Assembly (NCBI GenBank): GCA_041687475.1
Contig: JAWLBW010000001.1
Span: forward strand, 4,703 to 68,702
Direction: 5' to 3'
Source of the DNA: a bacterium
GTDB taxonomy: Bacteria; J088; JAWLBW01
Length of the DNA stretch: 64,000 bases
Position numbers and translations under genes: made by a program. Positions 21,319 through 45,936 of this stretch are shown here, piece after piece (position 1 is the stretch's first letter; every line of letters starts with the position of its first letter). Below the pieces are notes generated by a model that saw only the letters and a program-made list of their open reading frames with translations, did not search any database and was not told the DNA's origin.

Positions 21319-21412
21319 AACGGCCCGAACATTGTTGCAAGTACCCTGCGACCTGTCAACGATGGACCGCCAACCCACCGAAGCACTCGTTGCAGAGAAA
21401 ACCTATCGCAGA

Positions 21413-27022: not shown

Positions 27023-27793
27023 ATGGCCGATGCGCCCACCATAAGCCCCGGCGAAAAGGGAGTCCGGCCCCGCCGTGAGCTGAAGGGCGACCTGGGTGAC
27101 GTTCCTCTTGCGGTAATCCTGCAGGCGGTCAAGGAACGCCACCTCACGGGTAGTCTGTTTTTCCGTAGAGGTGCCGACGAAGTTACCGTCGAGGTCGCCA
27201 ACGGCGAAGTTGTTTTCGCCCACTCGACCGATCCAGCCACTCGCCTCGGCGAGTGGCTGCTCATGCGGGGGGCCATATCCGTTTCCCAGTATGAAGAAAG
27301 CGTGCGACGACTACGCGAATCGGGCAAGCGGCAGGGAACCATTCTGCTCGAGATGGGGTGTATTCCTCCGCTCGAGCTTGAACGGGCCGTCCGACAGCAG
27401 GTGGCCGACATCATCATGGACCTGTTTTCGTGGAGCACCGGCGAATACCGTTTCAGCCCCAAGGAAACCAGCGACGAGGCCATCACGCTCGATCTGAGCA
27501 TTTCCGAGGTCATCATTAAAGGAATCGGTCGCGTGCGCAACTGGCCCCTGATTCAGCGCGGCCTGCAGCCCTTTACCGAAGTGCTGCAGATTAACCGGGC
27601 GTTCGATCTCACCGAAGCCCGACGGGTGAGACTCAGTCGCGAAGAAGATTCCGTTCTCCAGCTTGTCGACGGCAAGCGAAGCATCGAACAGATTGCCGCG
27701 GCCTCGCCTTTCCGGGCATACGCAACCTATCGTACGCTATACGCCTTCAAGGCCGCCCACGTACTCGTTCGCGCGCAACCTCCCGGAAGATAG
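27023..27793 (+). CDS. DUF4388 (PATAN-like) plus MshEN-type (GspE-N-like) putative c-di-GMP-binding protein
   Basis: N-terminal DUF4388 pattern LKGDLGDVPLAVILQAV...TGSLFF...GEVVFA. Residues 74-126 carry two 24-residue RLGxxLLxxG(L/I)Ixxxx(L)xxx(L)xxQ motifs separated by exactly 5 residues. Confidence 0.6.
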   Translation: MADAPTISPGEKGVRPRRELKGDLGDVPLAVILQAVKERHLTGSLFFRRGADEVTVEVANGEVVFAHSTDPATRLGEWLLMRGAISVSQYEESVRRLRESGKRQGTILLEMGCIPPLELERAVRQQVADIIMDLFSWSTGEYRFSPKETSDEAITLDLSISEVIIKGIGRVRNWPLIQRGLQPFTEVLQINRAFDLTEARRVRLSREEDSVLQLVDGKRSIEQIAAASPFRAYATYRTLYAFKAAHVLVRAQPPGR

Positions 27794-27907: not shown

Positions 27908-27942
27908 ACAAAAAAGGGCCGCCCTGATGGCGGCCCCGAATC
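27908..27942 (-). terminator. Rho-independent terminator ending the polysaccharide-export operon
   Basis: 8 bp GC stem GGGCCGCC/GGCGGCCC with a 5 nt loop, preceded on the plus strand by A6 (T6 on the transcribed strand). Confidence 0.5.
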
Positions 27943-27956: not shown

Positions 27957-30047
27957 TCACGCCGCAGGCTCCTCGTCGTCGGAACCATAATAGTACTGGT
28001 ACTGGTAGGCATATGCCCCGTCGGTGACGTCGAGGCCGTTCAGAACGACGCCCAGCACATTGGTGTCGACCTCGACCAGACGCCGCCGGGCTTCGGCCAC
28101 CAGGTCGCGGCTGACCTTGCCGGACTTGACCACGTATAGTACGCCGTCTACCTTTCGGCCGAGTACGATGGCATCGGTCACCGGAATCACCGGGGGACTG
28201 TCGAAGACCACCCGATCGAATTCCTGTTCGAGCATCTTGAGCACTTCGTCCATGCGGGCGCTCGTCAACAGTTCGCTGGGATTCGGCGGCAATGGACCGC
28301 TGGGAATGACCCACAGATTGGGTATGTCGGTGGGCAGCATGACCGATGCGACGTCGTTCGAACCCAGAAGAAGCGTCGAGAAGCCTGCGTCGTTACGAAG
28401 GCCGAAGGTCTTGTGCAGCCTGCTTCGGCGCAGATCGGCGTCGACCAGGACCACGCGCTGTCCGGCCTGGGCCAGGGTGATACCCAGGTTGCAGGTGGTC
28501 GTCGATTTGCCCTCGAGCGGGGTCGCACTCGTGACGATGAAGGAGTGCAGCGGTTTTTCAGCCCCCAGGAACATGAGGTTCGTACGGATCGAACGGCAGC
28601 TTTCGGCGATCGTGCTCTTTGGGTGAGTGTGCACGAACAGGTCACGGTCGGTCGATTCTTCGTTAGCGTCGGCCATGTCCGGAATGACGCCGAGTAGCGG
28701 CAGCTGAACGTGACGTTCGATATCTTCGGTAGTCTTGATCGTGTTGTCGACGTACTCGAAGAAGAAGGCAAGGCCGATACCTCCGACGAGTCCCACGAGA
28801 ACGGCCAGGGCCATGTTGACCTGCACCCGCGGCTTCACGGGCCGGCTGGGTTCGAGCGCGCTGTCGATGATGCGCAGGTTGTTGGCGCGCAGCGAGCTTG
28901 TGAGATCGGCCTCCTTCAGCCGACCGAGCAGAATGTCGTACAGCTGCTGGTTTTTTTCGGCATCTTGTTGAATGGCCATGTGGCTGATGAATTTCTTGTG
29001 CAACTCGAGGGCTTCCTGTTTGGCGGTTTCGAGCTCGGCGCCCAGCGAGTTTTCTTCGGCACGCTTGAGCACGTACTCGGTACGGGCCGCTTCCAGAATC
29101 TTGGTTATCTCGCCCTCGATGCGCTGATTCACGAAGGAAATCTGGTCGTGCAGTCGGCGCATTTTCGGATGCTCGGGCAGGTAACGGGCCGAAAGCTGGC
29201 TGTGTTCGCGTTGCATGTCGATGAGTTGCTGCTTGAGATTCTGCACGAGCTGGCTCGAAAGAACCTCGACCAGTGCCTCTCGGTCGGTACCCGCCCGCAC
29301 GAGGCGGTCAAGGCGCTTCCAGCGTGCTTCTACCTCGATGCGTTCGGCCCGGGCGCGTGAATAGGCGGTGTTCAGATCGACCAGCTTCTGCAGCATCAGG
29401 TTCTGCTTGTCGTCGAGCCCCACAAGCCTGTTCTTGTTCTTGAACTCGAACATCTTCTGCTCGCTTTCGACGACCTGGTTTTTCAATTCGGCCAATCGCT
29501 CGCTCAGCCAGTCAACCGCCTGCTTGGTAAGACTCAGGCGCTGTTCGAGGTTATCTTCGATATATACTTCGGCAATTGCGTTGGCCACCCGGGTGGCTTC
29601 GGCAGGATCCGGATGATTGTAGGAAATCTTGACCAGCTGGCTTTCCTTGATTGGTGTGACCTCCAGGTGCGCAAGGAAGTAGCCCGGAGTCATGGTGACC
29701 TCCTTACCCTCCTTGCCTTCCTGCTTGAGCCCGAGCCGATCGATAACCCGGCGTGCGATGTGGTTGCTCTGGATAATGCGGTTCTGGGTGTTGTAGTAGT
29801 CCTGGTACATGTAGTAGTTGCCCGAACCGAAATCGTCGATGGACTGAAAGTTCAGTACCTTCGGCGTATCGGGCAGAATGGCGATGGTCGTCGTCGCACG
29901 ATAGATCGGCGTCTGGCTCAGGGTACCGATGAGTACGACCGTAACCAGAACGACGAAGAAGGTGGCAACGACCCAGCGTCGCTTGCGAATGACCTCCCAG
30001 AGGTCCTTGAGATGAAATGCGTTCTGCTGTGTTCCTTCCTGGCCCAC
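27957..30047 (-). CDS. wzc: Polysaccharide co-polymerase/bacterial tyrosine autokinase (Wzc/BY-kinase family)
   Basis: Two TM segments flanking a long coiled-coil periplasmic domain. Walker A GKSTTT, A' VVLVDADLRR, B VVFDSPPV. Tyr-rich tail YAYQYQYYYG. Confidence 0.85.
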   Translation of the reverse strand: MGQEGTQQNAFHLKDLWEVIRKRRWVVATFFVVLVTVVLIGTLSQTPIYRATTTIAILPDTPKVLNFQSIDDFGSGNYYMYQDYYNTQNRIIQSNHIARRVIDRLGLKQEGKEGKEVTMTPGYFLAHLEVTPIKESQLVKISYNHPDPAEATRVANAIAEVYIEDNLEQRLSLTKQAVDWLSERLAELKNQVVESEQKMFEFKNKNRLVGLDDKQNLMLQKLVDLNTAYSRARAERIEVEARWKRLDRLVRAGTDREALVEVLSSQLVQNLKQQLIDMQREHSQLSARYLPEHPKMRRLHDQISFVNQRIEGEITKILEAARTEYVLKRAEENSLGAELETAKQEALELHKKFISHMAIQQDAEKNQQLYDILLGRLKEADLTSSLRANNLRIIDSALEPSRPVKPRVQVNMALAVLVGLVGGIGLAFFFEYVDNTIKTTEDIERHVQLPLLGVIPDMADANEESTDRDLFVHTHPKSTIAESCRSIRTNLMFLGAEKPLHSFIVTSATPLEGKSTTTCNLGITLAQAGQRVVLVDADLRRSRLHKTFGLRNDAGFSTLLLGSNDVASVMLPTDIPNLWVIPSGPLPPNPSELLTSARMDEVLKMLEQEFDRVVFDSPPVIPVTDAIVLGRKVDGVLYVVKSGKVSRDLVAEARRRLVEVDTNVLGVVLNGLDVTDGAYAYQYQYYYGSDDEEPAA

Positions 30048-30059
30048 CGTTACCCCCTG

Positions 30060-30899
30060 TCAGAAGAAGCTTTGCGGAACTACGACGATATCTTCGGGCT
30101 GCAGGCGCAGGTCGCTTTCCTTGTTGTCGACGACCTTGCCCAGATTGATACGCATCTTGCGCTCTTTGCCGTTCTGCGAGCGTATTACCTGAACCTTGCC
30201 GTCGTTGGCCTTGTTGGTGAGACCTTCTGCCAGACTGACCGCCTGAAGAACGGTCAGGCCCTCGCGGTAGGGAACGACCCCCGGTTTTTTCACCTCGCCG
30301 TACACGTAGACGCCGTCGGAGCGCGGAACGAACAGAATGTCGCCGTCGCCCACGACGAGATTCAGGGTCGCTTCTCCGAAGCGCAGAAGTCGGTGGGCGT
30401 CAATGAGCACAGGTTCGGTTTCACTGGTGATGGCCGGGGGACCCGAGGTGCGATTTCCGCCCCGCACGAGAACAAGGCTCCGGGCCGCGTTCTCGAGAAC
30501 GCCACCGGCCTGCGAAACCAGATCGAGCACCGTGGTTCTACCGCTTAGCGAGTAGGGCCCGGGTTCCTTCACCATGCCGAGTACCACGGCCTTCCGGCTG
30601 CGGTATTCCTTGACCTGAACGAACACCTGCGGGTCGACGAGATAGCGCTCGGCCAACCGCGTGCGAATCAACTGCTCGATTTCGGCCGACGTATGTCCCG
30701 TGACCGCTACGGCCCCGATTAGAGGAAACCCGATGGTGCCGTTTTCGTGAACGACCGCTTCCTTGCTCAGGTCTTCTTCATCGAATACGCGAATTTCGAG
30801 CACGTCTCGTGCTCCGACCCGGTATTCGTCTGCCGCCTCGGAAATCGACGGCAACAGCATCAAGGCAATCAGGCTGCAGGTAAGCGCTATCAGTCGCAT
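30060..30899 (-). CDS. wza: Short outer-membrane polysaccharide export (OPX/Wza-family) protein lacking the C-terminal OM-spanning helix
   Basis: Signal peptide. Poly_export motif YRVGARDVLEIRVF...NGTIGFPLIG plus SLBB-like repeats. Only 279 aa, ending right after the last SLBB repeat. Confidence 0.8.
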   Translation of the reverse strand: MRLIALTCSLIALMLLPSISEAADEYRVGARDVLEIRVFDEEDLSKEAVVHENGTIGFPLIGAVAVTGHTSAEIEQLIRTRLAERYLVDPQVFVQVKEYRSRKAVVLGMVKEPGPYSLSGRTTVLDLVSQAGGVLENAARSLVLVRGGNRTSGPPAITSETEPVLIDAHRLLRFGEATLNLVVGDGDILFVPRSDGVYVYGEVKKPGVVPYREGLTVLQAVSLAEGLTNKANDGKVQVIRSQNGKERKMRINLGKVVDNKESDLRLQPEDIVVVPQSFF

Positions 30900-32161
30900 C
30901 AGAGCATTGCCTCCACTTCAAGAAAGACCTGATTGGTTTCGTAGCTGAACCAGTCGAAATCACTCTCGCGCTGCTCGCGGTTGTACCCGAGGTTTACCTT
31001 GAGCCAGTCTTCGCTTAGGGGCCGGAACTCTCCCTTTACCGAAGCGAGAAACCCCCAGTCGGTACGCGCATACGGCTCGGAATAGCGGTTGCTGAAGACA
31101 TTGCCGCCTACCGCCGCAGCCACGATGGGGGTGAAGGCGTGCCAGAATTCGGCGTAGCCCCGGTTGGAAACATAGTAGCTTGTGCTGTATGAATCGTAGA
31201 GTTCACGGGCGCCGCCGACGGTGAGGCGCGTGCGTTCACTGAATTTTTCGTTGAACTCCAGCTTGCCCAGCCAGGTGCTGGCGCGGGCGGCTGAGTTCTC
31301 GTAATCGAGGCGGCCCCACCCCAGGGCGAGAATGGCCGTCATGCGGCTCGTTACCGCACCCTGAGCGCCCAGCCAGGCTTTCCACCCGTCGGCGTCATTC
31401 TTCTGAATGGTCGAGGCGGCTTCCGAATCGAGATAACGAACGAAGTAGCCTTCACCCTCGACAAAAGCAGCCGTTTTGGGAAAGAAGCGATACGAAATGC
31501 GCCCGCGAGGGGCATGAATGTTCTTGTCGAGATACGTATAGGTCTGGGCCGAAAAACGCTCGCTGCTGAGTATGTAGCCGGCGTCGAACTGCAGGTTGCT
31601 GTCTTCCAGGTTATAGACGAGGGTCGGTTTGAATTCGTTGTGAACCAACCCGATGGGTCGGAGGTCGGCCTGCTCGTCGAAGGTGAGCTCGGTGGCCGTT
31701 ACGAAGAGGTTTTTTCGCACCAGATCGTCGCGCAGGCCAATACCGAAACCGTTGTTGAGCCGGAGGCTGAACTCGCCGAATACTTCGTGGTTGTTGAAGG
31801 TATCCCAGATGGTGGTATCGATGTTGCCATCGAAACCACCGGTGTATTTGACGCCCTGCCATGCATAGCCGGCTGACGCATGACTGTTCGTACCGAAAGG
31901 CAGGCGCAGGTTGAGCTGTGGGTTCAGCGTGAAGTAGATGTCTTCTACGGGGTCGACGCTGAAGCTGCCCGAGTCGTTTACCTTGAATACGTTGTCGTCG
32001 TAGATGGCCGAAAACGTGACCGATGGCCTTACCTCGACAGGTCCGGCCTGAAGCCGTGCCGGGCCGTCGGCCGCCTGGCTCGCGCCCGGAATAAGCGCTG
32101 CTAACAGCGCGCCTGCCGCGGCTGCAGTGATGATCCTGCTCACGATGTTCCCCCCAAACAA
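30899..32161 (-). CDS. Outer-membrane beta-barrel protein, candidate translocon partner of the short OPX
   Basis: Signal peptide IITAAAAGALLAALIPGASQA and alternating amphipathic beta-strand pattern rich in aromatic residues. It overlaps the wza start by 1 nt. Confidence 0.6.
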   Translation of the reverse strand: MFGGNIVSRIITAAAAGALLAALIPGASQAADGPARLQAGPVEVRPSVTFSAIYDDNVFKVNDSGSFSVDPVEDIYFTLNPQLNLRLPFGTNSHASAGYAWQGVKYTGGFDGNIDTTIWDTFNNHEVFGEFSLRLNNGFGIGLRDDLVRKNLFVTATELTFDEQADLRPIGLVHNEFKPTLVYNLEDSNLQFDAGYILSSERFSAQTYTYLDKNIHAPRGRISYRFFPKTAAFVEGEGYFVRYLDSEAASTIQKNDADGWKAWLGAQGAVTSRMTAILALGWGRLDYENSAARASTWLGKLEFNEKFSERTRLTVGGARELYDSYSTSYYVSNRGYAEFWHAFTPIVAAAVGGNVFSNRYSEPYARTDWGFLASVKGEFRPLSEDWLKVNLGYNREQRESDFDWFSYETNQVFLEVEAML

Positions 32162-32192
32162 GTAAGTGACCCGCCGAAGCGAGCCGGTGCGC

Positions 32193-32762
32193 TTAGCGCA
32201 CCGGCGTCGCCGGCTTTTTCGGCACGATATGATCGGCCGGTTTGTCCTTCGGCTCTACCGTTTCACCCGGTTCGATGTCGCCGTCGAGATTCTTTTCCGA
32301 GACCAGTTGTCCCGAATTGATGCGCACACAGGCGCGGGCCTGGGTAGCGAGATCGCGTACGCGTTCGGTCGCCGCCGACAGGGTTTTGGCCTCGATGTTC
32401 AGCGACTCGATATCGCCCGTGGGAATCGAAGACAGCCGCTTGGCGGCCTGACTGGCCGCATTGCGAAGATTCTGCGCCGGAACGAGCTTCTGCTCGACGC
32501 ACGAAGCGGCAAGGGAATCATTGCGTCGGCGGGCGTCGGTACGCAGCCGCGTCATGGACTCGATATGGCCGGCGATATTGTCGAGGTACTGTGTTTCTAC
32601 CTCCTGGATCCGACCCGCCAGGATCTGGCTCATCAGGGTTTCGACCCCACCAATGGCCGCCTGGGCCTGGTTCGGGTGCGCGTGCGTGAACCCGAGTTCG
32701 TGCGCGTGCGCGACACCGGGCGCAAGGCTTGCGGCCAGTATAAACATAAGCATCCGTGTCAT
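32193..32762 (-). CDS. Hypothetical secreted protein
   Basis: Signal peptide MTRMLMFILAASLAPGVAHA. His-rich HELGFTHAHPN, then a helical region. Confidence 0.45.
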   Translation of the reverse strand: MTRMLMFILAASLAPGVAHAHELGFTHAHPNQAQAAIGGVETLMSQILAGRIQEVETQYLDNIAGHIESMTRLRTDARRRNDSLAASCVEQKLVPAQNLRNAASQAAKRLSSIPTGDIESLNIEAKTLSAATERVRDLATQARACVRINSGQLVSEKNLDGDIEPGETVEPKDKPADHIVPKKPATPVR

Positions 32763-32874
32763 AAGTCACCCCAAAGACAAAAGCGTCTATCTCCAGCCTA
32801 GGAACCCGGAAGCAAACGGTCAACGGCCCGTCTCTGCAGACCTGGAACCCTCTTGCACAACCACCGCGCCTGTG

Positions 32875-33135
32875 TCACTGCGCCGTCGACCGGGTGTCGC
32901 GTTCTGCCAGCTTTACGGCGTCTTTCACAATCTCGTCGAGCAGGGGCGAGCGCAGGCGTTCTACGCCGGGTGTCGGTGGCCCTTTCTGACTTCGCTCCAG
33001 GATGAACATGACCTCGGGCTTGTGAATCTCACCCTCGACGGCCAACTGATCCATACGTATGGTCTCTGCGGCCGCCGTAATGCCGAGGAGCGACAAAAAT
33101 GCCACTGCCAGTCCCAGGAAAATGGATAGACGCAT
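32875..33135 (-). CDS. Small hypothetical secreted protein (86 aa)
   Basis: Signal peptide MRLSIFLGLAVAFLSLLGITAAA. Sits within the operon. Confidence 0.4.
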   Translation of the reverse strand: MRLSIFLGLAVAFLSLLGITAAAETIRMDQLAVEGEIHKPEVMFILERSQKGPPTPGVERLRSPLLDEIVKDAVKLAERDTRSTAQ

Positions 33136-33137
33136 GA

Positions 33138-34511
33138 TTACTTCACCGATGGTAGATAACGTTCGAGTTCACTGGGTTGTTCCCGTCGAGAAGAGCCGTT
33201 GCGCTCGTCGTCTGCAGGCGCGGAAGCCGGAGGTGATTCGGGCGCGGGTCGAATATGGTCGGAGTCTGCCTGTTCGCCGGCTCCGTCGTTGTTGCCAGCA
33301 GCCGAGTCGCCACTTTCCGTTTCAACGTCGGTCACGGGAATCGAGCCGCCTGTCTCGATGGGTGCCGGCAGTGATTTCAGCTTTTCGATGGCCCGTTGCA
33401 CCTCACCGCGTTTTCCATGCGTCAATAAATCGAGCGCTTTCTCGAGATAGGCCAATGCTCTGGCCCTTCCCGTAGAGGTCGAGGCATCCAGGGCGTAGTA
33501 CCTTCCGGCTGCGAGGGCATACGCGGGCTCCTCGACGCCGGAAGCGGCTGCCTCCTTGAGTGACGGCAATGCCTGCGACGCGAGATCGCGGTCAATGAGT
33601 AAGTTCGCCAGGTTGAGATGGGCTTCGCCGAGGCGAGGGGCGCTGGCAGCGGCCGAACGGAAATCTGTTTCGGCTTCGTCCCAGCGTTGCAGCACGGCAA
33701 ATACGTAACCTCTATCGTTGAGGGCAGGTGCGAACGTCGAACGCATTTCGAGCGATTCATTCAGGTGTTCAAGGGCAAGCGCCCATTCCTCTTTCTCCAA
33801 AGCCAGTCGAGCCAGTTGCCAGAAGACAACCCCCTTATCTACGGTGGGCGAATCGGTAAGGGTGGTCAGCAACTCTTCGGCGAGGGTGGTGTTGCCCTGT
33901 TGTGCGTGCACGCGGGCAACGACCAGGCGGGCCTCATCCTGGCGTTGATCGAGCAGCAGCGCGCGGCTCGCCGACTCGAGCGCCTTGTCGAAGTCGTCGG
34001 CGCGACGGGATACCTCGGCGAGAAACACCCACCGGCTGGCGTCGGATGGTCGGTCGTCGACGAGTTGGACGGCGAGTTTAGCCGCTTCGTCTGCACGACC
34101 CGACCGAATCAGGGCATCGGCCAGGACGGCCACGGCCGCAGGGTGGCCCGGTCGTAGAAACAGGGCATCGCGCACGGGGGCGATGGCAAGCGCCGGGTAG
34201 CCGTGATTCAGCAGCAGGCGCCCCAACTCGACCCGCAGTTCGACATCATCGGGCACCCGGCCCAGGCGTTCGATCAGGTGCCTTGCCTTCTCGTGCACGT
34301 CGGTATCGTCGAGGCCGCGTAGGGCTTCGGCGTAAAGGTTTGTCCTCTCGCTTTCAGGACCGGTCGCCCGCGTCACCGCGTCGGCATGGTTCTCCATGGC
34401 AACGGGTGCTTCCGGCGCCGGCTTTGTGACTTCGGCAACATCGAGCTTTCGCGAGGGCGATGAGGTGGCGCAGCCGGCTGCCGCCAGACAGAGGACTATG
34501 AGTTTTTTCAC
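33138..34511 (-). CDS. TPR-repeat lipoprotein (457 aa) with an acidic, Pro-rich C-terminal tail
   Basis: GTG start overlapping the upstream stop (GTGA). Lipobox LCLAAAGC. At least 8 TPR-like 34-residue units. Confidence 0.65.
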   Translation of the reverse strand: MKKLIVLCLAAAGCATSSPSRKLDVAEVTKPAPEAPVAMENHADAVTRATGPESERTNLYAEALRGLDDTDVHEKARHLIERLGRVPDDVELRVELGRLLLNHGYPALAIAPVRDALFLRPGHPAAVAVLADALIRSGRADEAAKLAVQLVDDRPSDASRWVFLAEVSRRADDFDKALESASRALLLDQRQDEARLVVARVHAQQGNTTLAEELLTTLTDSPTVDKGVVFWQLARLALEKEEWALALEHLNESLEMRSTFAPALNDRGYVFAVLQRWDEAETDFRSAAASAPRLGEAHLNLANLLIDRDLASQALPSLKEAAASGVEEPAYALAAGRYYALDASTSTGRARALAYLEKALDLLTHGKRGEVQRAIEKLKSLPAPIETGGSIPVTDVETESGDSAAGNNDGAGEQADSDHIRPAPESPPASAPADDERNGSSRREQPSELERYLPSVK

Positions 34512-37500
34512 TGGAGCGCCTCCCTGCCTTCTGCCGTGCGAAATACCAGATCGTCGTCATGAAAGAAGGTATGCTGCTCGCGAAGGACCTTTCCGAGAAG
34601 GCCGCGCAGGCGTTTGGTGCCGACCATGTTTCCGTCGAGGCCGTCGGCGGCAACCTCTTCCGAGCTTGTGCGTACTGCCGCAATCATGGGCACCGGCTCG
34701 TGACCCTTGTCTTTTGCAGCCAACAGATGTGGCGACAGTCCGTCGGTAAGCAGGCGTACGCGGCTGGGTTGGGTACTGAGGGCCGCTCTGATGCGGCCTG
34801 TCCACTCGTTTTCCATCTTGAGGTCGCCGGCCCGTTCAAGGGCGAGGTTCCAGGCTTCGAAAGCTTTGTCCTCGACGGGCAGCGCCTTTTCTTCAAGTTC
34901 GAATTTGTAGATTTCGGCTTCCTCGGAACTCAGGCCGTCTGGCGTGGGGGCCGAAAAGAGCGACTCGGCAAAGTGGGCGTACGCCTCGCCTATACGGAAA
35001 AGCGCCGCGACGGCCCAGTGTGGGTGACCGGCCTCTACGACACGCGTATACGACGCCTGTAGATTCTTGAGACGTGTGGCCTTGTTCTCGAGAATGCTCG
35101 CCAGACGGTCCATATTGCGTGGGAGCACGATGGCGCGGTATCGCTCACGCTCGAGTTCGGCAAGAGCGAAGCGGGCAGCCCCCGCCGTCCAGAGGTCGGG
35201 TTCGCCCTGATCACGCAGCCGGTTTTCAAGAGCGACCGCCTGCTGTAGAAGCCGCTTTTGTTCGCCCCCCTTTACCAGCATGGCCGCGCTGTAGGCTGCA
35301 AAGGGGGCCTTTTTGTCGTCTGAGCGACTGGCAGCGAACGATTTATAGCGCTCGACCGCCTGAGCGGTTTCTCCGGCCGCTTCCCACTGCACGGCGGCAC
35401 GAAGCAGGGTGTCGCTGGCCTCGGTCGCCGACCTTCCGTAGTTGTTCCAATGCTGTTCGAAAAACCTGGCCGCTTGCCTGTGTTCTCCGATCAGACCGCT
35501 CAGCGAGGCCACGTTGAAGAGGGCGTCTGCCGCCTCTTCGGAACGCGGATACTTTTCTACGACGAGAGCGTAGGCCGCGATGGCGCGCCGGTGATCGAGT
35601 GCGTTCTGCAGAATATGCCCGCGGCGAAAGGCGGCGCGGGAAGCGAATTTTTCCTTGCCGTGTCGTTCCAGTATTGACGCGTACAAATCGAGTGCCTTGA
35701 TCGTGTGACCGGCCTTTTCGTAGTTATAGGCTGCGTTGAACAGAGCCGCCACGCCGGCGGGTGTCGCAGGATACCGTCGGTAAACGGCAAGGTACCTGGT
35801 TGCTGCTTCCTCGGCGTCGCCCAGTCTGTCCTTGGCATGCGCTTCCCTGAACATGGCGCCACCCACCATGTCAAGCACGTATCGCCGGGCGACCTTGTCG
35901 GCGGGTAGACCCCTTTCGAGAAGCCGGTCGGCCCAATCGGCGAGATCTCCGTAGCGTTCTTCCTTCGCATAAGAGTCAATGACCGTTCGGATGGCATCGA
36001 GCACGAGGGGCGAATAAGGGTACGATTCGATCATGGCCGACAGGCTGCCGCGACAGGCGTCCTCCAGACCTTGCCTGCAAAGCTCGTGCCCTGCGTGATA
36101 GAGCACCCGTGGCGTATTCTCATCCGTCGGCAGCAAGTCGGCATACTGTCGACTGACTTCGACCAGTCGGTCGATGTTGGTCGGGTTCTGCTCGTAGAGC
36201 CGCCGGGCTGCAAGGACCGAGTTGTAGGCGGCGGTGTGCGCGATACCGGTCGTCGGGTCGGGGGCCGTTCGTGCGACCAGTGTATAGTGGCTCAGGGCAT
36301 CGGCGTAGGCTTTGCGATCATACAGAAGTTCGGCCAGATAGAAATTGATCTGACCTGCCCGGGCGTGCTCGGGAAAGTGTGCCAGATACAGCCGGTAACC
36401 CTCTTCGGCGGGCTTGCGGCTGGCATCGTTTCCATCACCCCATTGCTCGTGATGAAAGGTCGAGTACTCGAACAGATAGCGCTCGACCAGTGCATCGGCT
36501 TTTTCACGCAGGGTCGCCCGGGTGGCATTGGCAGCGTACCAGGCCGAGCCCGGAAGGAACTGCGTGGCAAGCCGTCGGCGTTCATTGACGGCCGTTACCT
36601 TTTCCCGCATCTGATGAAGCGATTGAACCTTGCGGCCTGCAGCACGTAGGTTTTCGGGGGCTTCGGGCCACCGTGCTTGTGCAACGGTGTAGGCGCTTAC
36701 CGCCGACATGAAGTCGGTGCTCTCGTAGAAAATGTCGGCTATGCGTCGCAGCAGCCTGTCGTCGTAGGACCGCTGCCCCCGATTTTCCATATCTTCAAGA
36801 GCCTGGGATAACCCCATGCCTTCAACGTAGCTGATGGCAAGGTACTGCATGGCCTCGTTCAACAGATCGGGGCGTTCACGGCCCATGTCGGCCAGCCGGG
36901 TAAAGGTCGAAATTGCCTCTGCATAAGCGTTCTGGCGATAGAGAGACCAGGCCAGCTTGTAGATGGCGCGATCCATCCAGGGGCCCTCTTCGGCAAGGGC
37001 GGCTTCATAGAAACGCGCGGCAGAGGCAATCCGGTGTCGGTCGAAGTGATAGTCGCCGATTCGAACGAGAATTTCTGCTCGCAGCCTGCTTTCTGCCGAC
37101 TCGGCCAGGAGCTCTTCGAAAGCGAGTACGGCTCTTCGTTCCTCGCCCATTTCCTGTAGTGCGTAGCCCTTCAGGTACCATGCAATCGCGCGGTTGTCTG
37201 CACCGCCCTTTCCGGCTAGCAAGCGCTCAAGGGTGGCGAGGGCAGTGCCGTAGTTCTTGCGGGGCTGCCTCTTCTCCGTTTCATCGGGAAGGGCCAGGTA
37301 ACGATTCATCTGCTCGGCGTAATGTTGATCGGCAGACTCCATTTGAAGCACCGCGAGGCGCAACAAGGCTTCAGAAACCTGGGGTGAGTCTGCGTGATTG
37401 GAGACGAAGCTTTCGAGGCGTGCCTCGGCCACCCGGCGCTGCTTCGCGGTTTCCGTTTCCAGCGGTACCCTTAGTGCCTCATAGCGCTTTTCTATCGCGT

Positions 37501-37696
37501 TGCGGCTTTGCGTGTGTTGCTTCGTCAGAACTGCGCCAATCTGCTTCTCGGCCGCATCAAGGTTACGCTCGGTAAGCAGCAATCTGAGCTCGGTTTCATC
37601 GTACGAAATCCGTGCCGAAGGTTCGTAGGCGGCGAGCCGTAGTGGCGGAGATGCCAGGAAAATCGCTACGCTCAAGAAGACACGGCGCACGATCAT
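34508..37696 (-). CDS. Large TPR-repeat protein (1062 aa), exported
   Basis: N-terminal signal/anchor MIVRRVFLSVAIFLASPPLRLAA. TPR-like repeats throughout (W/Y-L-G-A-Y-A spacing). ATGA overlap with the upstream gene. Confidence 0.65.
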   Translation of the reverse strand: MIVRRVFLSVAIFLASPPLRLAAYEPSARISYDETELRLLLTERNLDAAEKQIGAVLTKQHTQSRNAIEKRYEALRVPLETETAKQRRVAEARLESFVSNHADSPQVSEALLRLAVLQMESADQHYAEQMNRYLALPDETEKRQPRKNYGTALATLERLLAGKGGADNRAIAWYLKGYALQEMGEERRAVLAFEELLAESAESRLRAEILVRIGDYHFDRHRIASAARFYEAALAEEGPWMDRAIYKLAWSLYRQNAYAEAISTFTRLADMGRERPDLLNEAMQYLAISYVEGMGLSQALEDMENRGQRSYDDRLLRRIADIFYESTDFMSAVSAYTVAQARWPEAPENLRAAGRKVQSLHQMREKVTAVNERRRLATQFLPGSAWYAANATRATLREKADALVERYLFEYSTFHHEQWGDGNDASRKPAEEGYRLYLAHFPEHARAGQINFYLAELLYDRKAYADALSHYTLVARTAPDPTTGIAHTAAYNSVLAARRLYEQNPTNIDRLVEVSRQYADLLPTDENTPRVLYHAGHELCRQGLEDACRGSLSAMIESYPYSPLVLDAIRTVIDSYAKEERYGDLADWADRLLERGLPADKVARRYVLDMVGGAMFREAHAKDRLGDAEEAATRYLAVYRRYPATPAGVAALFNAAYNYEKAGHTIKALDLYASILERHGKEKFASRAAFRRGHILQNALDHRRAIAAYALVVEKYPRSEEAADALFNVASLSGLIGEHRQAARFFEQHWNNYGRSATEASDTLLRAAVQWEAAGETAQAVERYKSFAASRSDDKKAPFAAYSAAMLVKGGEQKRLLQQAVALENRLRDQGEPDLWTAGAARFALAELERERYRAIVLPRNMDRLASILENKATRLKNLQASYTRVVEAGHPHWAVAALFRIGEAYAHFAESLFSAPTPDGLSSEEAEIYKFELEEKALPVEDKAFEAWNLALERAGDLKMENEWTGRIRAALSTQPSRVRLLTDGLSPHLLAAKDKGHEPVPMIAAVRTSSEEVAADGLDGNMVGTKRLRGLLGKVLREQHTFFHDDDLVFRTAEGREALQ

Positions 37697-40269
37697 TGCT
37701 TTCCTCCCTCGACTGCGATACCGAATGCCGGCGCCCCCTGGTCATCGGTTTTCAGGTCCAGCCGATAGCGGCGACCACGTACGAATTCGTAATACAACGA
37801 CCCGGCCACCCGCACTTCTTCGGCTCCGTCGTCGAAGACGAGTAGAATGTTGACCGTGTGTGGACCAGGTTGGAGGAACGTCGCCTCTGCGACCCCTCGC
37901 TCTACTGTGAGGGGGCGGTGGTCTACCGTTATCCGCGCTCCCGTGAGATTGCCCCAGGGTGCATCTGCAGGCGCGTAAAAACGGAGGGCGGTTGCGTCGT
38001 GCCTGGCCATGTCGCGGTCCATCTCCAGTGCATTCCGGAGATGTCGGTTCAGGCGGGCCTGAAAAATGCGCTGTTCCGACAGGGCCTGCGCCTGTGCCGA
38101 TGCGCGTCGATCGGCGGCCTCGATGCGGGGTTGCAGTCGAGACGGCGCTTCCGTTTCGCCCGAAACGGAAGCAGGACTCCGTATGGCGGCCTGAAGCTCA
38201 CGGTGTGTCTCGCCAATCGCCTCCAGGTCATTCTGCTCGAGTGCCGAGAGGGCCCTTACCCGCTCGACCGACTGTTCGCGTGCCTTCCAGGCTACGTCTA
38301 CGCTGCCGAGTTTGGCGTCGGCCACAAGACTACCGACCGCATCGTTGATGGCGAGCGCGGCGGCCAGAGTCATTTCGCCTCGAAGTTCCTGCGCATCGAC
38401 GGAGAGCGTGGCGGCCTGCCCACGCATTTCCTGCAGTTCGGCATACATTCTGACGACATGCGGGCGCATCTGCTCGGCCGATGCACGACGCCGGGTCTCG
38501 AGAGTGGCCCGGACCGCTCCCAACTCATAGTGCGCACTCTGCAGCTGGTTGTGCAGTTTACGCAGACCGGCTATTTGGGCCCGGCTGTACGCCTGTTCGA
38601 GAACATCGAGCAGGGTGCCGATTACCTGCATCGAACTACCCGCCAGCGCGCGCCGAGCATCGTTGATTCGCACTTCGTTGCTGTCCATCTGTGAGAATAT
38701 GGCATTGACGGCATCGGCGGCAGGCATGCCGTCTCGACCGGAACGGCCGGTTTCCATGGTCAGGGCCTGCATGTATCGACTTCCTTCGGCGTATTGCAGA
38801 AGATGGATCAGGTCGCGCCGCTTCTCGGTCGTTTTCTCGCCCAGATGCGCCAGCTCGGCTCGCTGGATGTCGAGGTCGGACAACAAGGTCAATGCCTCCT
38901 GGAATCGCAGTGCATCGCGACCGCCCAGCCTTGCTCCGAGCCGTTTGGCGGTGCGCACCAATTCGCTCTCCATGCCGGACACCGAGCGGGAAAGCTCTTG
39001 CTGACGCGCCAGTAGACGTTGCGCGCTCTTCGGCTCACCCCAGGTGTTTTCGGCAAGGAGCTGCACGGCGTGCAATGTCGTCATAACGTCGAAGAGCTGC
39101 CGGTTCAGGTTGTCCATGCCGCGAACGAGTCTGTCGGCTTCCTGAACCTGCGGCTGCTCACGCAGCCAGGCCAGCAGTTCGATGTCCTGCCGTGCCTCTT
39201 CCGAAAAGTCTCCCGTGAGGTTGTCGAGCAGCATGTCGTAGATTTCGGCCGGCCGTTCGTGGGCCTGCAGATCGACAATGCGGTCGTTCACGGCTCCGTA
39301 GTGGGCGATGTAGGACGCGAATCTCTGTTGTGCCTGGGTGAAGGCTTCACCCTCGAGCAGAAGGTACCCATACAGAAGGCGTGCCTTCGGCAGAAGTCGG
39401 CTGAGCGGTCTGTCGAGCGCGAGCCGCAGTAGTTGTGTCTGGGCTCTTTCCGTCTCGCCGCGTGCCAGTTCGACCCATGCTCCTTCGTAAAGCGCACGAT
39501 CGTAGTAGGGAGATTTTTCTTCAAGAGTCGAGTACCACGCATGGGCCTGAGCGTAATCGCCCGCTTTGAAATACAGCCTGCCCAGAGCCAATACCGAAAG
39601 GTCGAAGAGGTCTGAATTGGGTGCGGTTTTTTGGGTAACCGTCGTGAAACGGTCTGCGGCGGCTTGCGCCGATCCGTCGAGCAGGGCTAAAACGCCCAGG
39701 AAGTATTCGGCTTCGGCATCGGCATCGGCGCTGGCCAGCTCGGCGAATACGGTCTGGGCATGTTCCGTCGCACCGTGGGAAAAAGCGGTACGGGCTGCCT
39801 CCAGAAGAAGGGAGCGCTCCGTTTCGTCGGTGGCCTGCCTGCGATACGCAGCCAACGCTTCGAATGCCGGTTCGATTCTTCCGGTGCGCAGTTCGAGCCT
39901 CGTCAGTGCCGCCAGGGCCTGGAGCCTGAGGGGGCCACTTGCGAGCGACAGGTCTTCGAGCAGTCTTCGGGCGCTGCCGTAAAGGCCGCTTTCGAGGTAG
40001 GCCTGCGCAAGCGTCCAGCGGGCAGTTTCTCCGGTGGCCGTTCCGGCGTAGGTAGATTCCCGCAACACGTTCAGCAGCGGCGCGATGGCCTGCACGGGTT
40101 CTCCGCCGGCGAGGTAGCTTCGCGCAAGACGAATCTGGTCATCGCCGTAATATGGTGGCGGAGCAGCCTTCGTGTGCCCCGGGAACACGAGTACTCCAGC
40201 CAGTGAGATGGCGACGGCAGCCAGAAAGTATGTCACTCTTTGCCTTCGCGACATGCTGCATCTCCACAT
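37693..40269 (-). CDS. TPR plus long coiled-coil plus C-terminal beta-domain protein (858 aa)
   Basis: N-terminal TM/signal. About 350 aa of TPR, then about 350 aa of heptad-rich Q/E/R/A/L sequence. The last ~100 aa are beta-rich with LQPGPHTVNILLVF...YRLDL. Confidence 0.6.
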   Translation of the reverse strand: MWRCSMSRRQRVTYFLAAVAISLAGVLVFPGHTKAAPPPYYGDDQIRLARSYLAGGEPVQAIAPLLNVLRESTYAGTATGETARWTLAQAYLESGLYGSARRLLEDLSLASGPLRLQALAALTRLELRTGRIEPAFEALAAYRRQATDETERSLLLEAARTAFSHGATEHAQTVFAELASADADAEAEYFLGVLALLDGSAQAAADRFTTVTQKTAPNSDLFDLSVLALGRLYFKAGDYAQAHAWYSTLEEKSPYYDRALYEGAWVELARGETERAQTQLLRLALDRPLSRLLPKARLLYGYLLLEGEAFTQAQQRFASYIAHYGAVNDRIVDLQAHERPAEIYDMLLDNLTGDFSEEARQDIELLAWLREQPQVQEADRLVRGMDNLNRQLFDVMTTLHAVQLLAENTWGEPKSAQRLLARQQELSRSVSGMESELVRTAKRLGARLGGRDALRFQEALTLLSDLDIQRAELAHLGEKTTEKRRDLIHLLQYAEGSRYMQALTMETGRSGRDGMPAADAVNAIFSQMDSNEVRINDARRALAGSSMQVIGTLLDVLEQAYSRAQIAGLRKLHNQLQSAHYELGAVRATLETRRRASAEQMRPHVVRMYAELQEMRGQAATLSVDAQELRGEMTLAAALAINDAVGSLVADAKLGSVDVAWKAREQSVERVRALSALEQNDLEAIGETHRELQAAIRSPASVSGETEAPSRLQPRIEAADRRASAQAQALSEQRIFQARLNRHLRNALEMDRDMARHDATALRFYAPADAPWGNLTGARITVDHRPLTVERGVAEATFLQPGPHTVNILLVFDDGAEEVRVAGSLYYEFVRGRRYRLDLKTDDQGAPAFGIAVEGGKQ

Positions 40270-40272
40270 GGG

Positions 40273-40953
40273 TCACTGCACCGCAAACCTGAGAACGGGG
40301 CGTTCCCGCAGGTTCTTGCTTCCGCCCTGATCGACGGCTTCGACGCTCAGTTCGACCGCTTTTCCGCGGGGCGTCGAAAAGTGATACTGGCTTCGCATGT
40401 CGAAAGAGTACTGTTCCATATAGGTGAAGACGCCGTAACCGGTGGCCCTGAGGGTGTAGATGGCGTCAATGGTATGGTTACCGGGTAGCACGCTCGCATC
40501 GAAAACGACGAACTGTGGGTTGGCGCCGATACGCTTGGGGTCGTTGTTCGTGTATACGGTAAAGCCGTCAAGCTTGTATTCGATGCTTTCGATTTCGAAG
40601 GCGCCGCCGAGTTGGTTGTCGTGCACGATCAGAAGTTTGGTGCCCGTGACGAAACCCTGAGAGATGTCTTCTCCCAGGGTCAGAATTCGGCTCTTCAAAT
40701 CCTGAATCTGGCCCTGCAGGGCATGCATGCGCTCTTCGACGTTTTCGAGTCTGGGATGCGAGTCTCGTTTCTTCACGCTCTCGCCCAGCTCGGAACTGAC
40801 CCTGACATTCTCCAGCCCGGCCGTTTCAGGATCGCTCGTCGACGTGACGCCCGCAGAGTGCGGCTCGGCGCGGGCGCTGTCGGGAATACGGGCTCCAAGG
40901 CTCAGGAGAACGGCAAGAACGGCCAGAATGAAAATGCTACGGCTGAAAGTCAT
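40273..40953 (-). CDS. Membrane-anchored coiled-coil protein whose C-terminal beta-domain is related to that of the 858 aa protein
   Basis: TM anchor MTFSRSIFILAVLAVLLSLG. Coiled coil ENVEERMHALQGQIQDLKSRIL. C-terminal LPGNHTIDAIYTL...YHFST. First gene of the operon. Confidence 0.5.
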   Translation of the reverse strand: MTFSRSIFILAVLAVLLSLGARIPDSARAEPHSAGVTSTSDPETAGLENVRVSSELGESVKKRDSHPRLENVEERMHALQGQIQDLKSRILTLGEDISQGFVTGTKLLIVHDNQLGGAFEIESIEYKLDGFTVYTNNDPKRIGANPQFVVFDASVLPGNHTIDAIYTLRATGYGVFTYMEQYSFDMRSQYHFSTPRGKAVELSVEAVDQGGSKNLRERPVLRFAVQ

Positions 40954-41099
40954 GAATCCCCCCCAGAGACTAACCCGGCGGCCACCCATAAGGCAGCCAC
41001 ACACTCTCCAGCTTACGCCCGGCTTGCCGTTTCGTCAATAACTTGACCGATGACGGGGCGTCGTTTTAAGCTGGCTGAAGATAAGACTTTGGAGGAAGC

Positions 41100-42047
41100 A
41101 TGCATCTGGTAACAGGCGGGGCGGGATTCATAGGCTCGCATCTGGTAGAGGCGCTCCTGAAGGAAGGAAAGCGGGTCAGGGTGGTCGACAACTTCTCCAG
41201 CGGTCGTGTCGAGAACCTGCGGCCTTTCCTCAAGGACATTGAATTGCTGACAGGCGACGTTTCCGATGAAAGCGCGGCACGTGCGGCGGCTAAGGGAGTC
41301 GAGGTGGTGTTTCACCAGGCGGCTCTGCCCTCGGTACCTCGGTCCATTCAGCAACCCGTGGCTTCGCACCAGGCCAATGCCACCGGCACGCTGCAGATGC
41401 TGCAGGCCGCAACGCAGGCCGGGGTACGGCGTTTCGTCTATGCAGCCAGCTCGTCGGCCTACGGCGACACGCCCACGCTTCCGAAAATCGAAACCATGCC
41501 GCCCCGGCCCCGCTCGCCCTATGTGGCCGCCAAGCTTACGGGCGAACTCTACTGCCAGTCCTATTATCATGTGCACGGTCTGGAAACAGTCTGCCTGCGC
41601 TACTTCAACATCTTCGGGCCGAGACAAGATCCGGAATCGCCTTATGCCGCCGTAATTCCGCGTTTTCTCGAAGCTCTGCTGTCGGGGCACTCACCCGTCA
41701 TCTTCGGCGACGGAAACCAGACGCGTGATTTCACCTTTATCGAAAATGCCGTCCAGGCCAACCTGCGGGCGGCCGAAGCCGAAGGGGTTGGCGGAGAGGT
41801 ATTCAACGTCGCATGCGGAAAGCGGGTGTCATTGAACCACTTGCTCGAAATGCTTCAGGTTGAAACCGGCGTTCGCATCTCGGCCACCTTCGGCGAGCCG
41901 CGCCCGGGCGACGTTCGAGACTCCCTGGCTTCGATCGACAAGGCCCGCGAAAGGTTGGGCTACCGGCCTTCCATTGATGTCAAAGAAGGCATTGCCCGCA
42001 CGGTTGCGTGGTTCACGCAGACCACGGGGCTGCGCAGGGCTGCTTGA
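41100..42047 (+). CDS. NAD-dependent sugar epimerase/dehydratase (UDP-hexose 4-epimerase-like)
   Basis: GGAGFIGSHL Rossmann motif, catalytic S..YxxxK (YVAAK), 315 aa. Confidence 0.8.
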   Translation: MHLVTGGAGFIGSHLVEALLKEGKRVRVVDNFSSGRVENLRPFLKDIELLTGDVSDESAARAAAKGVEVVFHQAALPSVPRSIQQPVASHQANATGTLQMLQAATQAGVRRFVYAASSSAYGDTPTLPKIETMPPRPRSPYVAAKLTGELYCQSYYHVHGLETVCLRYFNIFGPRQDPESPYAAVIPRFLEALLSGHSPVIFGDGNQTRDFTFIENAVQANLRAAEAEGVGGEVFNVACGKRVSLNHLLEMLQVETGVRISATFGEPRPGDVRDSLASIDKARERLGYRPSIDVKEGIARTVAWFTQTTGLRRAA

Positions 42048-42071: not shown

Positions 42072-42108
42072 AATCCGGCCGCCGGGATAGCCCGGGGCCG
42101 GATTTTCA
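42072..42108. terminator. GC-rich hairpin between the convergent epimerase and MshEN genes
   Basis: AATCCGGCCGCCGGG-atag-CCCGGGGCCGGATT followed by TTT. Confidence 0.4.
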
Positions 42109-45180: not shown

Positions 45181-45237
45181 GTTTCGCGCCGTTCGCACCC
45201 CGCCCTGGCCTTACAGGACTACGGGTAGCGACATCGA

Positions 45238-45924: not shown

Positions 45925-45936
45925 GGAGGAGTCGGA

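Follow-up and report, generated by a model that had tools for sequence, protein, structure and literature searches.

A conserved nine-gene operon combines a composite OPX/porin export module with homologues of the periplasmic Glt proteins

We analyzed a 64,000-nucleotide stretch of a bacterial contig (JAWLBW010000001.1, positions 4,703 to 68,702, assembly GCA_041687475.1; GTDB lineage J088; JAWLBW01), here called the window, whose own coordinates are used below. Its minus strand carries, from 41004 to 27957, nine tightly packed open reading frames (ORFs), which we named g1 (at 41004) to g9 (at 27957). The products of g7 to g9, which are an outer-membrane beta-barrel, a short outer-membrane polysaccharide export (OPX) protein and a polysaccharide co-polymerase (PCP), make up a composite translocon of a kind already described in Myxococcus (PMC9601211, PMC9603273). 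The large tetratricopeptide repeat (TPR) proteins encoded ahead of them are, almost certainly by their sequences, colinear homologues of GltC, GltD and GltE, followed by a small protein at the GltF position; these form the periplasmic part of the Agl-Glt/Nfs core complex. Taken as a whole, the explanation that the operon encodes two modules that serve polysaccharide export together seems to us the probable one, though well short of assured. The features of the operon are as follows.

40273..41004, minus strand: g1, 243 aa, with a signal sequence, then a short coiled coil, and a beta-rich domain at the C-terminus; OPX-linked Glt-like clusters conserve it as their first gene
37693..40269, minus strand: g2, 858 aa, GltC-like, with a signal peptide, an N-terminal TPR region, a long coiled coil and a beta-rich C-terminus
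34508..37696, minus strand: g3, 1062 aa, GltD-like central TPR protein (TIGR02795, 99 bits; gene neighbourhoods of relatives)
33138..34511, minus strand: g4, 457 aa, GltE-like lipoprotein with TPRs and the lipobox LAAAGC; its tail is acidic and disordered
32875..33135, minus strand: g5, 86 aa, a small protein that is secreted and whose gene takes the GltF (CglF) position
32193..32762, minus strand: g6, 189 aa, helical and secreted; two of its Cys are conserved, and its tail is rich in Pro and Lys
30899..32161, minus strand: g7, 420 aa, outer-membrane beta-barrel, OPX porin partner of the Wzp/EpsX type (BBP2_2, AlphaFold2, hhalign)
30060..30899, minus strand: g8, 279 aa, Class-3 (D1-D2-D3) OPX protein (Poly_export and two SLBB; alignment to Wza and WzaB)
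27957..30047, minus strand: g9, 696 aa, PCP-2a (Wzc-type) co-polymerase with a fused bacterial tyrosine kinase (BY-kinase; Wzz, GNVR, AAA_31)
27915..27937, minus strand: intrinsic terminator, a 9-bp stem with 8 G-C pairs and a 5-nt loop, then TTTTTTGTTTG

A first-pass annotation of the same sequence had proposed a nine-gene minus-strand operon here, and we found all nine ORFs where it had placed them, with gaps and overlaps that could be read from the sequence. The overlaps that it gave at 37693-37696, 34508-34511 and 30899 are an ATGA at g2/g3, a GTGA at g3/g4 and a TGATG at g7/g8, the last being an overlap of 1 nt. The other junctions are gaps of 3 nt (g1/g2), 2 nt (g4/g5), 112 nt (g5/g6), 31 nt (g6/g7) and 12 nt (g8/g9). 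The terminator that it had located at 27908-27942 was also confirmed as a 9-bp G-C-rich hairpin followed by TTTTTTGTTTG, about 20 nt past the stop codon of g9. Reading the protein sequences directly, we found N-terminal signal sequences in eight of the nine products, all but g9. The full gene set and its flanks recur in four further genomes, with proteins that are 45-65% identical (loci L001, L002, L073 and L074, the last of which is broken off by the contig end within the second gene; L001 lies on the same contig as L005, mentioned below). In these relatives an epimerase gene stands upstream, and the genes for a PatA_N (DUF4388) protein and Lon stand downstream. The nine-gene operon is thus real and conserved, and it recurs far beyond chance.

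The 112-nt gap between g5 and g6 (32763-32874) is the only sizeable one in the operon and divides the Glt-like genes from g6 and the barrel, OPX and PCP genes; a gap of 56-109 nt is found at this position in all the relatives. A weak hairpin with no good T-run lies at 32168-32185, in the 31-nt gap between g6 and g7. Upstream of the operon, a TTGACG-N17-TAAGCT sequence is present on the minus strand at about 41011-41040, just ahead of the annotated GTG start of g1. Translation of g1 may in fact begin at an internal Met (MTFSRS...), in which case a short leader would remain.

The most firmly recognized of the export proteins is g8. It matched Poly_export with 84 bits and both SLBB and SLBB_2 twice in Pfam, and it aligned to residues 61-324 of the 359-residue Wza chain (D1-D3), terminating five residues beyond. 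The first-pass annotation had described a short Wza-like protein without the D4 helix, and indeed the alignment ends where D4 would start; no Wza_C (D4) helix, GfcC domain or further Pfam domain was found in g8. With Poly_export and SLBB, neither Wza_C nor GfcC, and an adjoining barrel gene, g8 belongs to the Class-3, or D1D2(D2), OPX proteins. Its C-terminus, VPQSFF, aligned to the VPESFF of WzaB from Myxococcus xanthus (PDB 9n9a), and its last 86 residues match WzaB end to end, the terminal S-F-F included. The S-F-F tail of WzaB contacts the porin WzpB and is needed for secretion (PMC12819527), and the tail of g8 is predicted to be a porin-binding S-F-F of the WzaB type. g8 has no lipobox, and a type-I signal peptide with a likely signal-peptidase I site (SEA/AD) is found instead. 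The loop that contacts the PCP in WzaB, where it reads YVRRPQV (Arg106-Arg107), is YLVDPQV in g8, as in E. coli Wza.

The gene of g7 overlaps the start of g8 by a single nucleotide, and this barrel/OPX pairing is kept in all four related genomes named above. That the 420-aa product is a beta-barrel, as had been proposed, was supported by Pfam (BBP2_2, 42.5 bits; cut-off 23.7) and by the best of five AlphaFold2 models, built from an 11-sequence alignment, which has 18 long strands (pLDDT 79.2, pTM 0.71; the other four models were poorer). The top Foldseek matches of this model in PDB were the 18-stranded OccK/OpdK porins and AlgE, with TM scores of about 0.5, whereas a sequence search of PDB returned no relative. 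A comparable 18-stranded fold match was reported for EpsX (Schwabe 2022), in agreement with our model. Moreover, g7 aligned to the barrels encoded upstream of WzaB-like OPX genes over 339 columns (hhalign 98.6%, E 1.4e-15), which ties it indirectly to WzpB, EpsX or ExoB of M. xanthus. Thus the short-OPX-plus-barrel architecture suggested earlier was upheld, and a PCP-2a kinase is next in order. This protein, g9, scored 190.6 bits on TIGR01007 (cut-off 108) and 297 bits on TIGR01005. It has two hydrophobic segments, at residues of about 25-45 and 410-430, and a Tyr-rich C-terminal tail, YAYQYQYYY; Wzz and GNVR between two transmembrane helices, a P-loop kinase and a Tyr cluster identify it as a PCP-2a with BY-kinase. 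Judged from the hydrophobic segments, its periplasmic region of about 365 aa looks like that of an ordinary Wzc, which would fit an OPX protein that retains D3.

The link to PEP-CTERM-associated export pairs that had been drawn in the first-pass annotation did not hold. All of the NCBIfam scores in question were under their cut-offs (PrsT, 70.5 vs 312; TIGR03016, 16.9 vs 90.9; EpsL, 24 vs 275; TIGR03027, 135.6 vs 180), and no exosortase was present among the scanned ORFs, so that a PEP-CTERM/XrtA exopolysaccharide locus was rejected.

We next turn to the genes ahead of the export module. The assignment of g2 as GltC-like is based on alignments with families from related loci, of which those with the commonest architecture are called type B and are described below. 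The NCBIfam gliding_GltC model gave g2 only 30 bits (E 1.9e-7), far under its cut-off of 450, and gave the GltC-like relatives of g2 69-129 bits. With hhalign, g2 aligned to the 780-830-aa proteins of type-B loci over 620 columns (99.9%, E 1.4e-37) and to the GltC-like proteins of Polyangiales (99.6%, E 5e-24). g3 contains a YbgF/CpoB-type TPR block at about residues 614-758 and has few close relatives (45-50% identity); the distant ones, at 24-30%, are mostly from Sandaracinaceae and Polyangiales. Its identity as GltD-like follows from the gene neighbourhoods of these relatives. The gliding_GltE model aligned to g4 from the N-terminus with 47.9 bits (cut-off 225), PrsT gave 70.5 bits (cut-off 312), and hhalign joined g4 to the GltE-like families of type B (99.7%) and of Polyangiales (99.6%). 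For g5, hhalign gave 97.2% over 27 columns with a 77-115-aa family of type-B loci, and this family in turn gave 96.7% with the proteins at the GltF position in Polyangiales and 24.7 bits on gliding_CglF; the direct link between g5 and GltF is weak. Homologues of GltC, GltD and GltE thus stand together in the operon, colinear with those of loci L037, L076, L085 and L152. The first-pass annotation had counted more than 2300 aa of TPR in the three large proteins; all three do contain TPRs, but the detectable repeats span only part of their 2,377 aa.

The two remaining proteins of this part match relatives at the same positions. No Pfam or NCBIfam family was found for g1, yet hhalign aligned it to the g1-like proteins found in type-B loci (99.8%, E 2.6e-30) and to a protein of about 260 aa encoded upstream of the GltC-like genes of Polyangiales (96%, E 3.8e-9), and phmmer gave 54 bits with the product of L037 6346-7014. 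It is nearest to the g1-like proteins of L141, L147 and L148, loci that carry a motor and/or a TonB-like gene. The earlier description of g1 as a membrane coiled-coil protein was right about the coiled coil, whereas the protein is secreted or signal-anchored, with a beta-rich part, rather than clearly a membrane protein. We also noticed that g1 and the C-terminal part of g2 (37693-38100) have the same layout, a coiled coil followed by a beta-rich domain of about 100 aa with LPGxHT; the similarity between the two was not significant (BLASTP E 0.5). g6 had no Pfam or NCBIfam match and no similarity to TonB or GltG in hhalign. It aligned over 97 columns to the ORF directly upstream of the barrel gene in 20 type-B loci (89%, E 2.3e-6), suggesting that g6 is probably homologous to the gene of about 180-210 aa that precedes the type-B barrel.

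The TPR set had been compared earlier with a BcsC, PgaA or AlgK scaffold split into separate polypeptides. Membership in that family was not borne out: PgaA scored 25.9 bits against a cut-off of 367, no match at BcsC level was obtained, and no synthase is present in the window. The proteins are colinear GltC/D/E/F homologues instead, and a scaffold-like role is possible for them.

We then surveyed relatives of g3 and their surroundings. In L004 the g3 relative is followed by proteins that match the GltE (90 bits), GltG (105 bits) and CglE models, and in L003 a GltC-like protein (129 bits) precedes it. The gene order in L037 is g1-like, GltC-like, GltD-like, GltE-like, an 84-aa gene, ExbB, ExbD, ExbD and a TonB_C protein, and the g3 relatives of L075 (Ca. 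Manganitrophus) and L076 stand beside ExbB-ExbD-ExbD-TonB_C genes by the same logic. As an aside, L075, from Nitrospirota, holds a minimal Glt-like set outside Myxococcota at 10001-16574, with GltD-like (1217 aa), 120-aa, ExbB, ExbD, ExbD and TonB_C genes; its annotation lists no GltC-like, GltE-like or nearby OPX gene.

A metagenome scan for GltD-like loci, seeded with the window's clade and P0013, returned 74 loci (an earlier 19-sequence GltD alignment had been too divergent for such a scan). Most of the 74 have the type-B architecture, in this order: a small GTPase of 195-197 aa, a g1-like protein, a GltC-like protein (about 780-830 aa), a GltD-like protein (about 1110-1160 aa), a GltE-like protein (about 490-570 aa), a gene of about 80-90 aa, a GltG-like gene, one or two small genes, a barrel (about 410-440 aa) and an OPX protein (about 200 aa). 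The GltG-like protein of type B scored 163 bits on the GltG model, and its AgmX/PglI C-terminal domain was above the cut-off; ExbB-ExbD-ExbD genes are also present in a few loci (L123, L141 and P0013). An OPX gene lies 4.4-8.9 kb downstream of the GltD-like gene in 18 of the 19 metagenome loci with at least 8.5 kb of downstream sequence, and a PCP gene is within reach in none of these 19. The OPX C-terminus is VP(E/Q)S plus two hydrophobic residues in 22 of the 25 OPX genes that stand beside Glt-like clusters. A rough neighbour-joining tree, which carries no support values, placed all GltD-like proteins with OPX linkage, those of the window's clade included, in one group apart from the classical Polyangiales, Bdellovibrio-like and Manganitrophus forms.

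These results bear on whether, in other genomes, the TPR genes belong to an operon of their own. That is so in Polyangiales and Sandaracinaceae, where only 1 of 35 Glt-like clusters has an OPX gene, and that one is the window's sister L005; in the window's own clade it is not so, and the barrel and OPX genes nearly always follow. With near certainty, this Glt clade stays linked to a homologous barrel/OPX pair across distant myxobacterial lineages. P0011, tried as a further OPX-linked relative, proved to be a glt-like locus of the classical Polyangiales kind, with no OPX gene.

Two features of these loci are noted on their own account. A gene for a GTPase of MglA size (195-197 aa) lies directly upstream of the g1-like gene in L085 (6069-6662), L037 (5608-6195) and most of L077-L150, so that the G4-type cluster, which is introduced next, seems to keep a polarity GTPase gene beside it. 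In type-B loci other than L152 (see below), a 320-340-aa gene lies between the GltG-like gene and the barrel gene.

The barrels of type B carry Myxococcaceae or Archangium names wherever they are named. In L152, from a metagenome-assembled genome of Archangium sp., GltC/D/E/F/G-like genes are followed by two small genes, the barrel gene, the OPX gene and then unrelated genes. Over its full length, the OPX protein of this locus shares 62% of its residues with M. xanthus WzaB, RRPQV and VPESF(F) among them. Between the GltG-like and barrel genes of L152 (8804-9226) we also noticed a gene for a 140-aa cyclic-nucleotide-binding protein. In M. xanthus, MXAN_1915 is WzaB and MXAN_1916 is WzpB (PMC7310880), and MXAN_1925 is mglA (195 aa; Luciano 2011, PMC3169522). 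The same study named MXAN_1919-1923 the G4 cluster, of unknown function, and listed them in its supplement as Glt paralogues: MXAN_1919 (447 aa), 1920 (91 aa), 1921 (490 aa, TPR), 1922 (1111 aa, TPR) and 1923 (809 aa). In supplementary file 5 of that paper the homologue column for MXAN_1919-1923 reads 2541, 4870, 4869, 4868 and 4867, which is apparently reversed with respect to the protein sizes. Each of these genes agrees with its type-B counterpart in size and order, and from this we infer that type B is the mglA, G4 and wzpB-wzaB region of M. xanthus. Full-text literature searches returned no paper that names WzaB/WzpB together with GltD, and no mention of MXAN_1917-1924 besides Luciano 2011.

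We next asked which components are absent. Among the ORFs of the 64-kb window that were scanned with Pfam, a few of which had no match at all, there was no glycosyltransferase, flippase (Wzx) or polymerase (Wzy), as the first-pass annotation had stated; the other scanned ORFs are housekeeping and regulatory genes. Split clusters are normal in this group, in that the M. xanthus clusters for exopolysaccharide (EPS), major spore coat polysaccharide (MASC) and biosurfactant polysaccharide (BPS) are interrupted by 18 kb to 1 Mb. With L037 proteins as queries, no ExbB, ExbD, TonB_C/GltG or MglA-like protein was found among all window ORFs of at least 50 aa, and the GltG-like, TonB_C or FHA proteins of L037, L075 and L076 matched no window ORF. 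Neither a TonB-like GltG nor AglRQS (ExbB/TolQ plus two ExbD/TolR), which belong to the core complex, is therefore encoded within the 64 kb. Upstream of g1 there is no MglA-type GTPase gene; the divergent epimerase gene is found there instead. Compared with type B, the window thus lacks the GltG-like gene, the gene at the MXAN_1918 position and the GTPase gene, has an extra SLBB domain in its OPX protein and carries the Wzc gene directly after the OPX gene.

We propose that the operon is the export end of a Wzx/Wzy-type polysaccharide pathway and consists of two modules. In the one made by g7 to g9, a PCP-2a kinase in the inner membrane, an OPX protein in the periplasm and a porin of 18 strands would form a composite translocon of the BPS/EPS kind, with the OPX protein, which has no membrane helix, reaching the porin through its C-terminal S-F-F tail. 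The other, made by g1 to g5 and probably g6, would be the periplasmic part of a Glt/Nfs-type transducer from the G4-cluster paralogue group. In structural models, GltC organizes the periplasmic segments of GltA/B/H, and GltD is a central pillar that binds GltE, GltF and TonB-like domains (PMC11761067). By analogy, the GltC-like protein would dock under the porin, as GltC is modelled under the GltA/B/H barrels, and the GltD/E/F-like proteins would build a shaft or platform in the periplasm, which would position the translocon or handle the polymer as it emerges. Because related loci encode a TonB-like GltG and sometimes ExbB-ExbD-ExbD, the set is probably coupled to a proton-driven motor, which would drive it where GltG and ExbBD are present. 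In the window's lineage the motor may be encoded elsewhere, as with the shared AglRQS of M. xanthus, or the set may act as a passive scaffold with the PCP as its inner-membrane partner. In M. xanthus the closest Glt paralogue, Agl-Nfs, which needs the proton-motive force, moves and packs the Exo polymer once a Class-3 OPX system has exported it (PMC3858216). Joint function of the Glt-like and export modules is, in our judgment, moderately likely.

Several points weigh against joint function. We know of no experiment that ties a G4-type cluster to polysaccharide export. All of the Glt model scores are far under the NCBIfam equivalog cut-offs, so the window proteins are paralogues and not the motility proteins themselves, and the TPR-to-TPR matches of g4 are partly generic, so that much of their weight lies on its colinear position. 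With no GltG, ExbB or ExbD in the window, coupling to a motor cannot be argued from the window sequence. The gap between g5 and g6 may carry an internal promoter or attenuator, and a promoter there would separate the modules. The equation of type B with the M. xanthus mglA-G4-wzpB-wzaB region draws on locus-tag order, gene sizes and a related metagenome-assembled genome. In M. xanthus itself, cells with a polar insertion in MXAN_1922 were not appreciably impaired in motility, whether in gliding or in the soft-agar insets (PMC3169522), although a defect would be expected if the insertion abolished wzpB/wzaB expression or BPS export. Given that BPS mutants have swarm phenotypes (PMC7310880), wzpB/wzaB may be expressed and function independently of G4. 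Finally, Wartel 2013 (PMC3858216) concluded that Agl-Glt/Nfs is dispensable for the synthesis and export of its polymers, which are still exported without it, and acts only in their post-export handling.

The foremost competitor is that nothing but history has put two independent systems on one transcript, namely a G4-type apparatus with its own cargo (protein, lipid or unknown) and a self-sufficient exporter. We regard this as rather unlikely. The MXAN_1922 phenotype, the 112-nt gap and the single OPX gene among 35 classical Glt-like clusters all agree with it, as does the report that WzaB works with WzcB, encoded 1.016 Mbp away, and is orphan-like (PMC7310880); protein or lipid cargo has also been suggested for other Glt-like systems (Wartel 2013, PMC3858216). 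A merely historical neighbourhood does not, however, sit well with an adjacency that is kept (in the 18 of 19 loci and five genomes) though the GltD-like proteins are only about 25% identical, or with the grouping of all OPX-linked GltD-like proteins in one clade. Moreover, the porin is the only barrel in these loci; no GltA/B/H-type barrels and no other outer-membrane part for the Glt set are encoded there, and genes are translationally coupled on both sides of the g5-g6 gap.

A passive chaperone or scaffold like AlgK or the TPR parts of BcsC and PgaA, which would guide the polymer and recruit modifying enzymes with no motor, would account for the large TPR content, the weak NCBIfam matches to PgaA, BcsC and PrsT, the AlgE-like fold of the barrel and the lack of TonB-like and ExbB/ExbD genes in the window, and OPX genes do occur near TPR-bearing PgaA/BcsC homologues (Saidi 2022). 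We nevertheless consider it quite improbable, since the proteins are homologous and colinear to GltC/D/E/F while the AlgK/BcsC-type scores are far under cut-off, and neither a synthase nor a TPR-barrel fusion is found; the sister loci with a GltG-like TonB-domain protein, some of them with ExbB-ExbD-ExbD, point to an energized function in the family. It is very unlikely that the operon encodes a gliding machine of the Agl-Glt kind that uses secreted slime polysaccharide. Glt homology and the MglA-size GTPase gene directly upstream in type-B loci might suggest one, but the window has no genes for GltA/B/H/K, CglB, GltG, GltI, GltJ or a motor, the M. xanthus G4 mutant glides normally, and Luciano 2011 argued that the core set alone gives no motility.

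Among known systems, the export module most resembles WzcB/WzaB/WzpB of M. xanthus (Saidi 2022, Schwabe 2022, Nat Commun 2026), with which it shares the short OPX protein without Wza_C, the S-F-F tail, the abutting 18-stranded barrel and the kinase-fused PCP-2a. It differs in its OPX protein, which has 279 aa instead of the 204 of WzaB, a second SLBB, a type-I signal peptide in place of a lipobox and no twin-arginine PCP contact, and in a PCP gene that is adjacent to the OPX gene, whereas that of BPS is 1 Mbp away. With the M. xanthus G4 region the operon has in common the order g1-like, GltC, GltD, GltE, GltF, then small gene, barrel and OPX, as well as similar gene sizes and a GltD-like protein of the same clade as type B. 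Unlike that region, it has no GltG-like gene, MXAN_1918-position gene or upstream mglA, it has Wzc added, and identity is about 25-28%. In Agl-Nfs with Exo (Wza/Wzc-type; Wartel 2013), a Glt-type periplasmic set is likewise tied to a polymer exported by a Class-3 OPX/porin, and for Agl-Nfs the tie is functional. There, however, nfs and exo are separate loci, and Nfs has small barrels of its own (NfsA/B/H) and NfsG and uses the AglRQS motor, whereas the window has one operon, the porin as the only barrel and no motor adaptor.

GltC, GltD, GltE and GltG with AglRQS form the Agl-Glt core complex, whose role outside gliders is unknown (Luciano 2011). The operon resembles it in holding the homologues of GltC, GltD and GltE together, and is incomplete in lacking GltG and the motor; the full set with ExbB-ExbD-ExbD occurs in the sister loci L037, L123, L141 and P0013. 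The AlgK/BcsC/PgaA and PrsT/EpsL/TIGR03016 sets also combine TPR proteins with a 16-18-stranded barrel for polysaccharide export, and the barrel of the operon has an AlgE-like fold; in the window, by contrast, there is no homology above cut-off and no synthase or exosortase, and TPRs and barrel are separate polypeptides.

Research has so far kept the composite OPX/porin translocon apart from the Glt/Nfs transducer, M. xanthus wzaB has been treated as an orphan gene, and G4 and the wider core complex have no assigned function. The operon and about two dozen related loci show that one Glt-like clade is regularly encoded with a WzpB/WzaB-type pair, here with Wzc in addition. The export module is already known, as is the family of the TPR genes, whose G4 branch has no known function; what appears to be new within the literature searched is the regular physical linkage, especially the motor-less, Wzc-attached nine-gene form. 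The conserved linkage gives a Glt gene cluster of unknown function a role that can be tested in a tractable organism, M. xanthus. If the modules work together, the commonest class of OPX systems would gain a new accessory layer, and the published idea that capsule assembly, spore-coat assembly and gliding share an origin (Agrebi 2015) would be supported; otherwise the operon would be an ordinary Class-3 export module beside a paralogous Glt set. A wider proposal, which we put forward only tentatively, is that the G4 branch, and perhaps the ancestral core complex, serves Class-3 OPX/porin translocons as an accessory. On this view, a TPR shaft in the periplasm, docked under the porin, would energize polymer export or deposition or direct it in space, by way of GltG and a Tol/Exb-type motor in those loci that have them. 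The operon would then be a motor-less version hard-wired to Wzc, and gliding and spore-coat assembly would be later specializations.

The divergent gene upstream of g1 encodes the only sugar enzyme in the scanned window.

41100..42047, plus strand: NAD-dependent sugar-nucleotide epimerase (TviC/GalE-like; Pfam Epimerase, 215 bits)

Its best NCBIfam match was the TviC-type UDP-GlcNAcA 4-epimerase (240 bits, under the cut-off of 760), and it may be a pointer to an amino-uronic-acid polymer. The gene is adjacent to the operon in L001, L002 and L073 as well, and an epimerase gene also follows the OPX gene in the P0013 locus.

Both flanks of the operon encode MshEN-type cyclic-di-GMP-binding motifs. 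On one side, 42106-43128 (minus strand) encodes a 340-aa protein with two copies of NF053729 (78 bits) and Pfam MshEN; on the other, 27023-27793 (plus strand) encodes a DUF4388/PatA_N protein with 32.7 bits on NF053729, just under the cut-off of 38. PatA_N and Lon genes lie beside the operon in all the related genomes. The flanking MshEN-type proteins and the conserved PatA_N/Lon pair hint at control by cyclic-di-GMP.

Farther away, four consecutive ORFs on the minus strand at 16564-21378 (219, 763, 296 and 271 aa) have a gene-like codon bias and no Pfam or NCBIfam match. A regulatory cluster lies upstream of the operon at 43955-47675, with genes for a response regulator, LemA, an extracytoplasmic function (ECF) sigma factor (45238-45924) and an FHA-domain protein (46614-47675); beside the sigma factor gene, 45937-46620 gave a weak anti-sigma match. 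The part of this region with the FHA, LemA, response regulator, SDR and MshEN genes is syntenic in L002.

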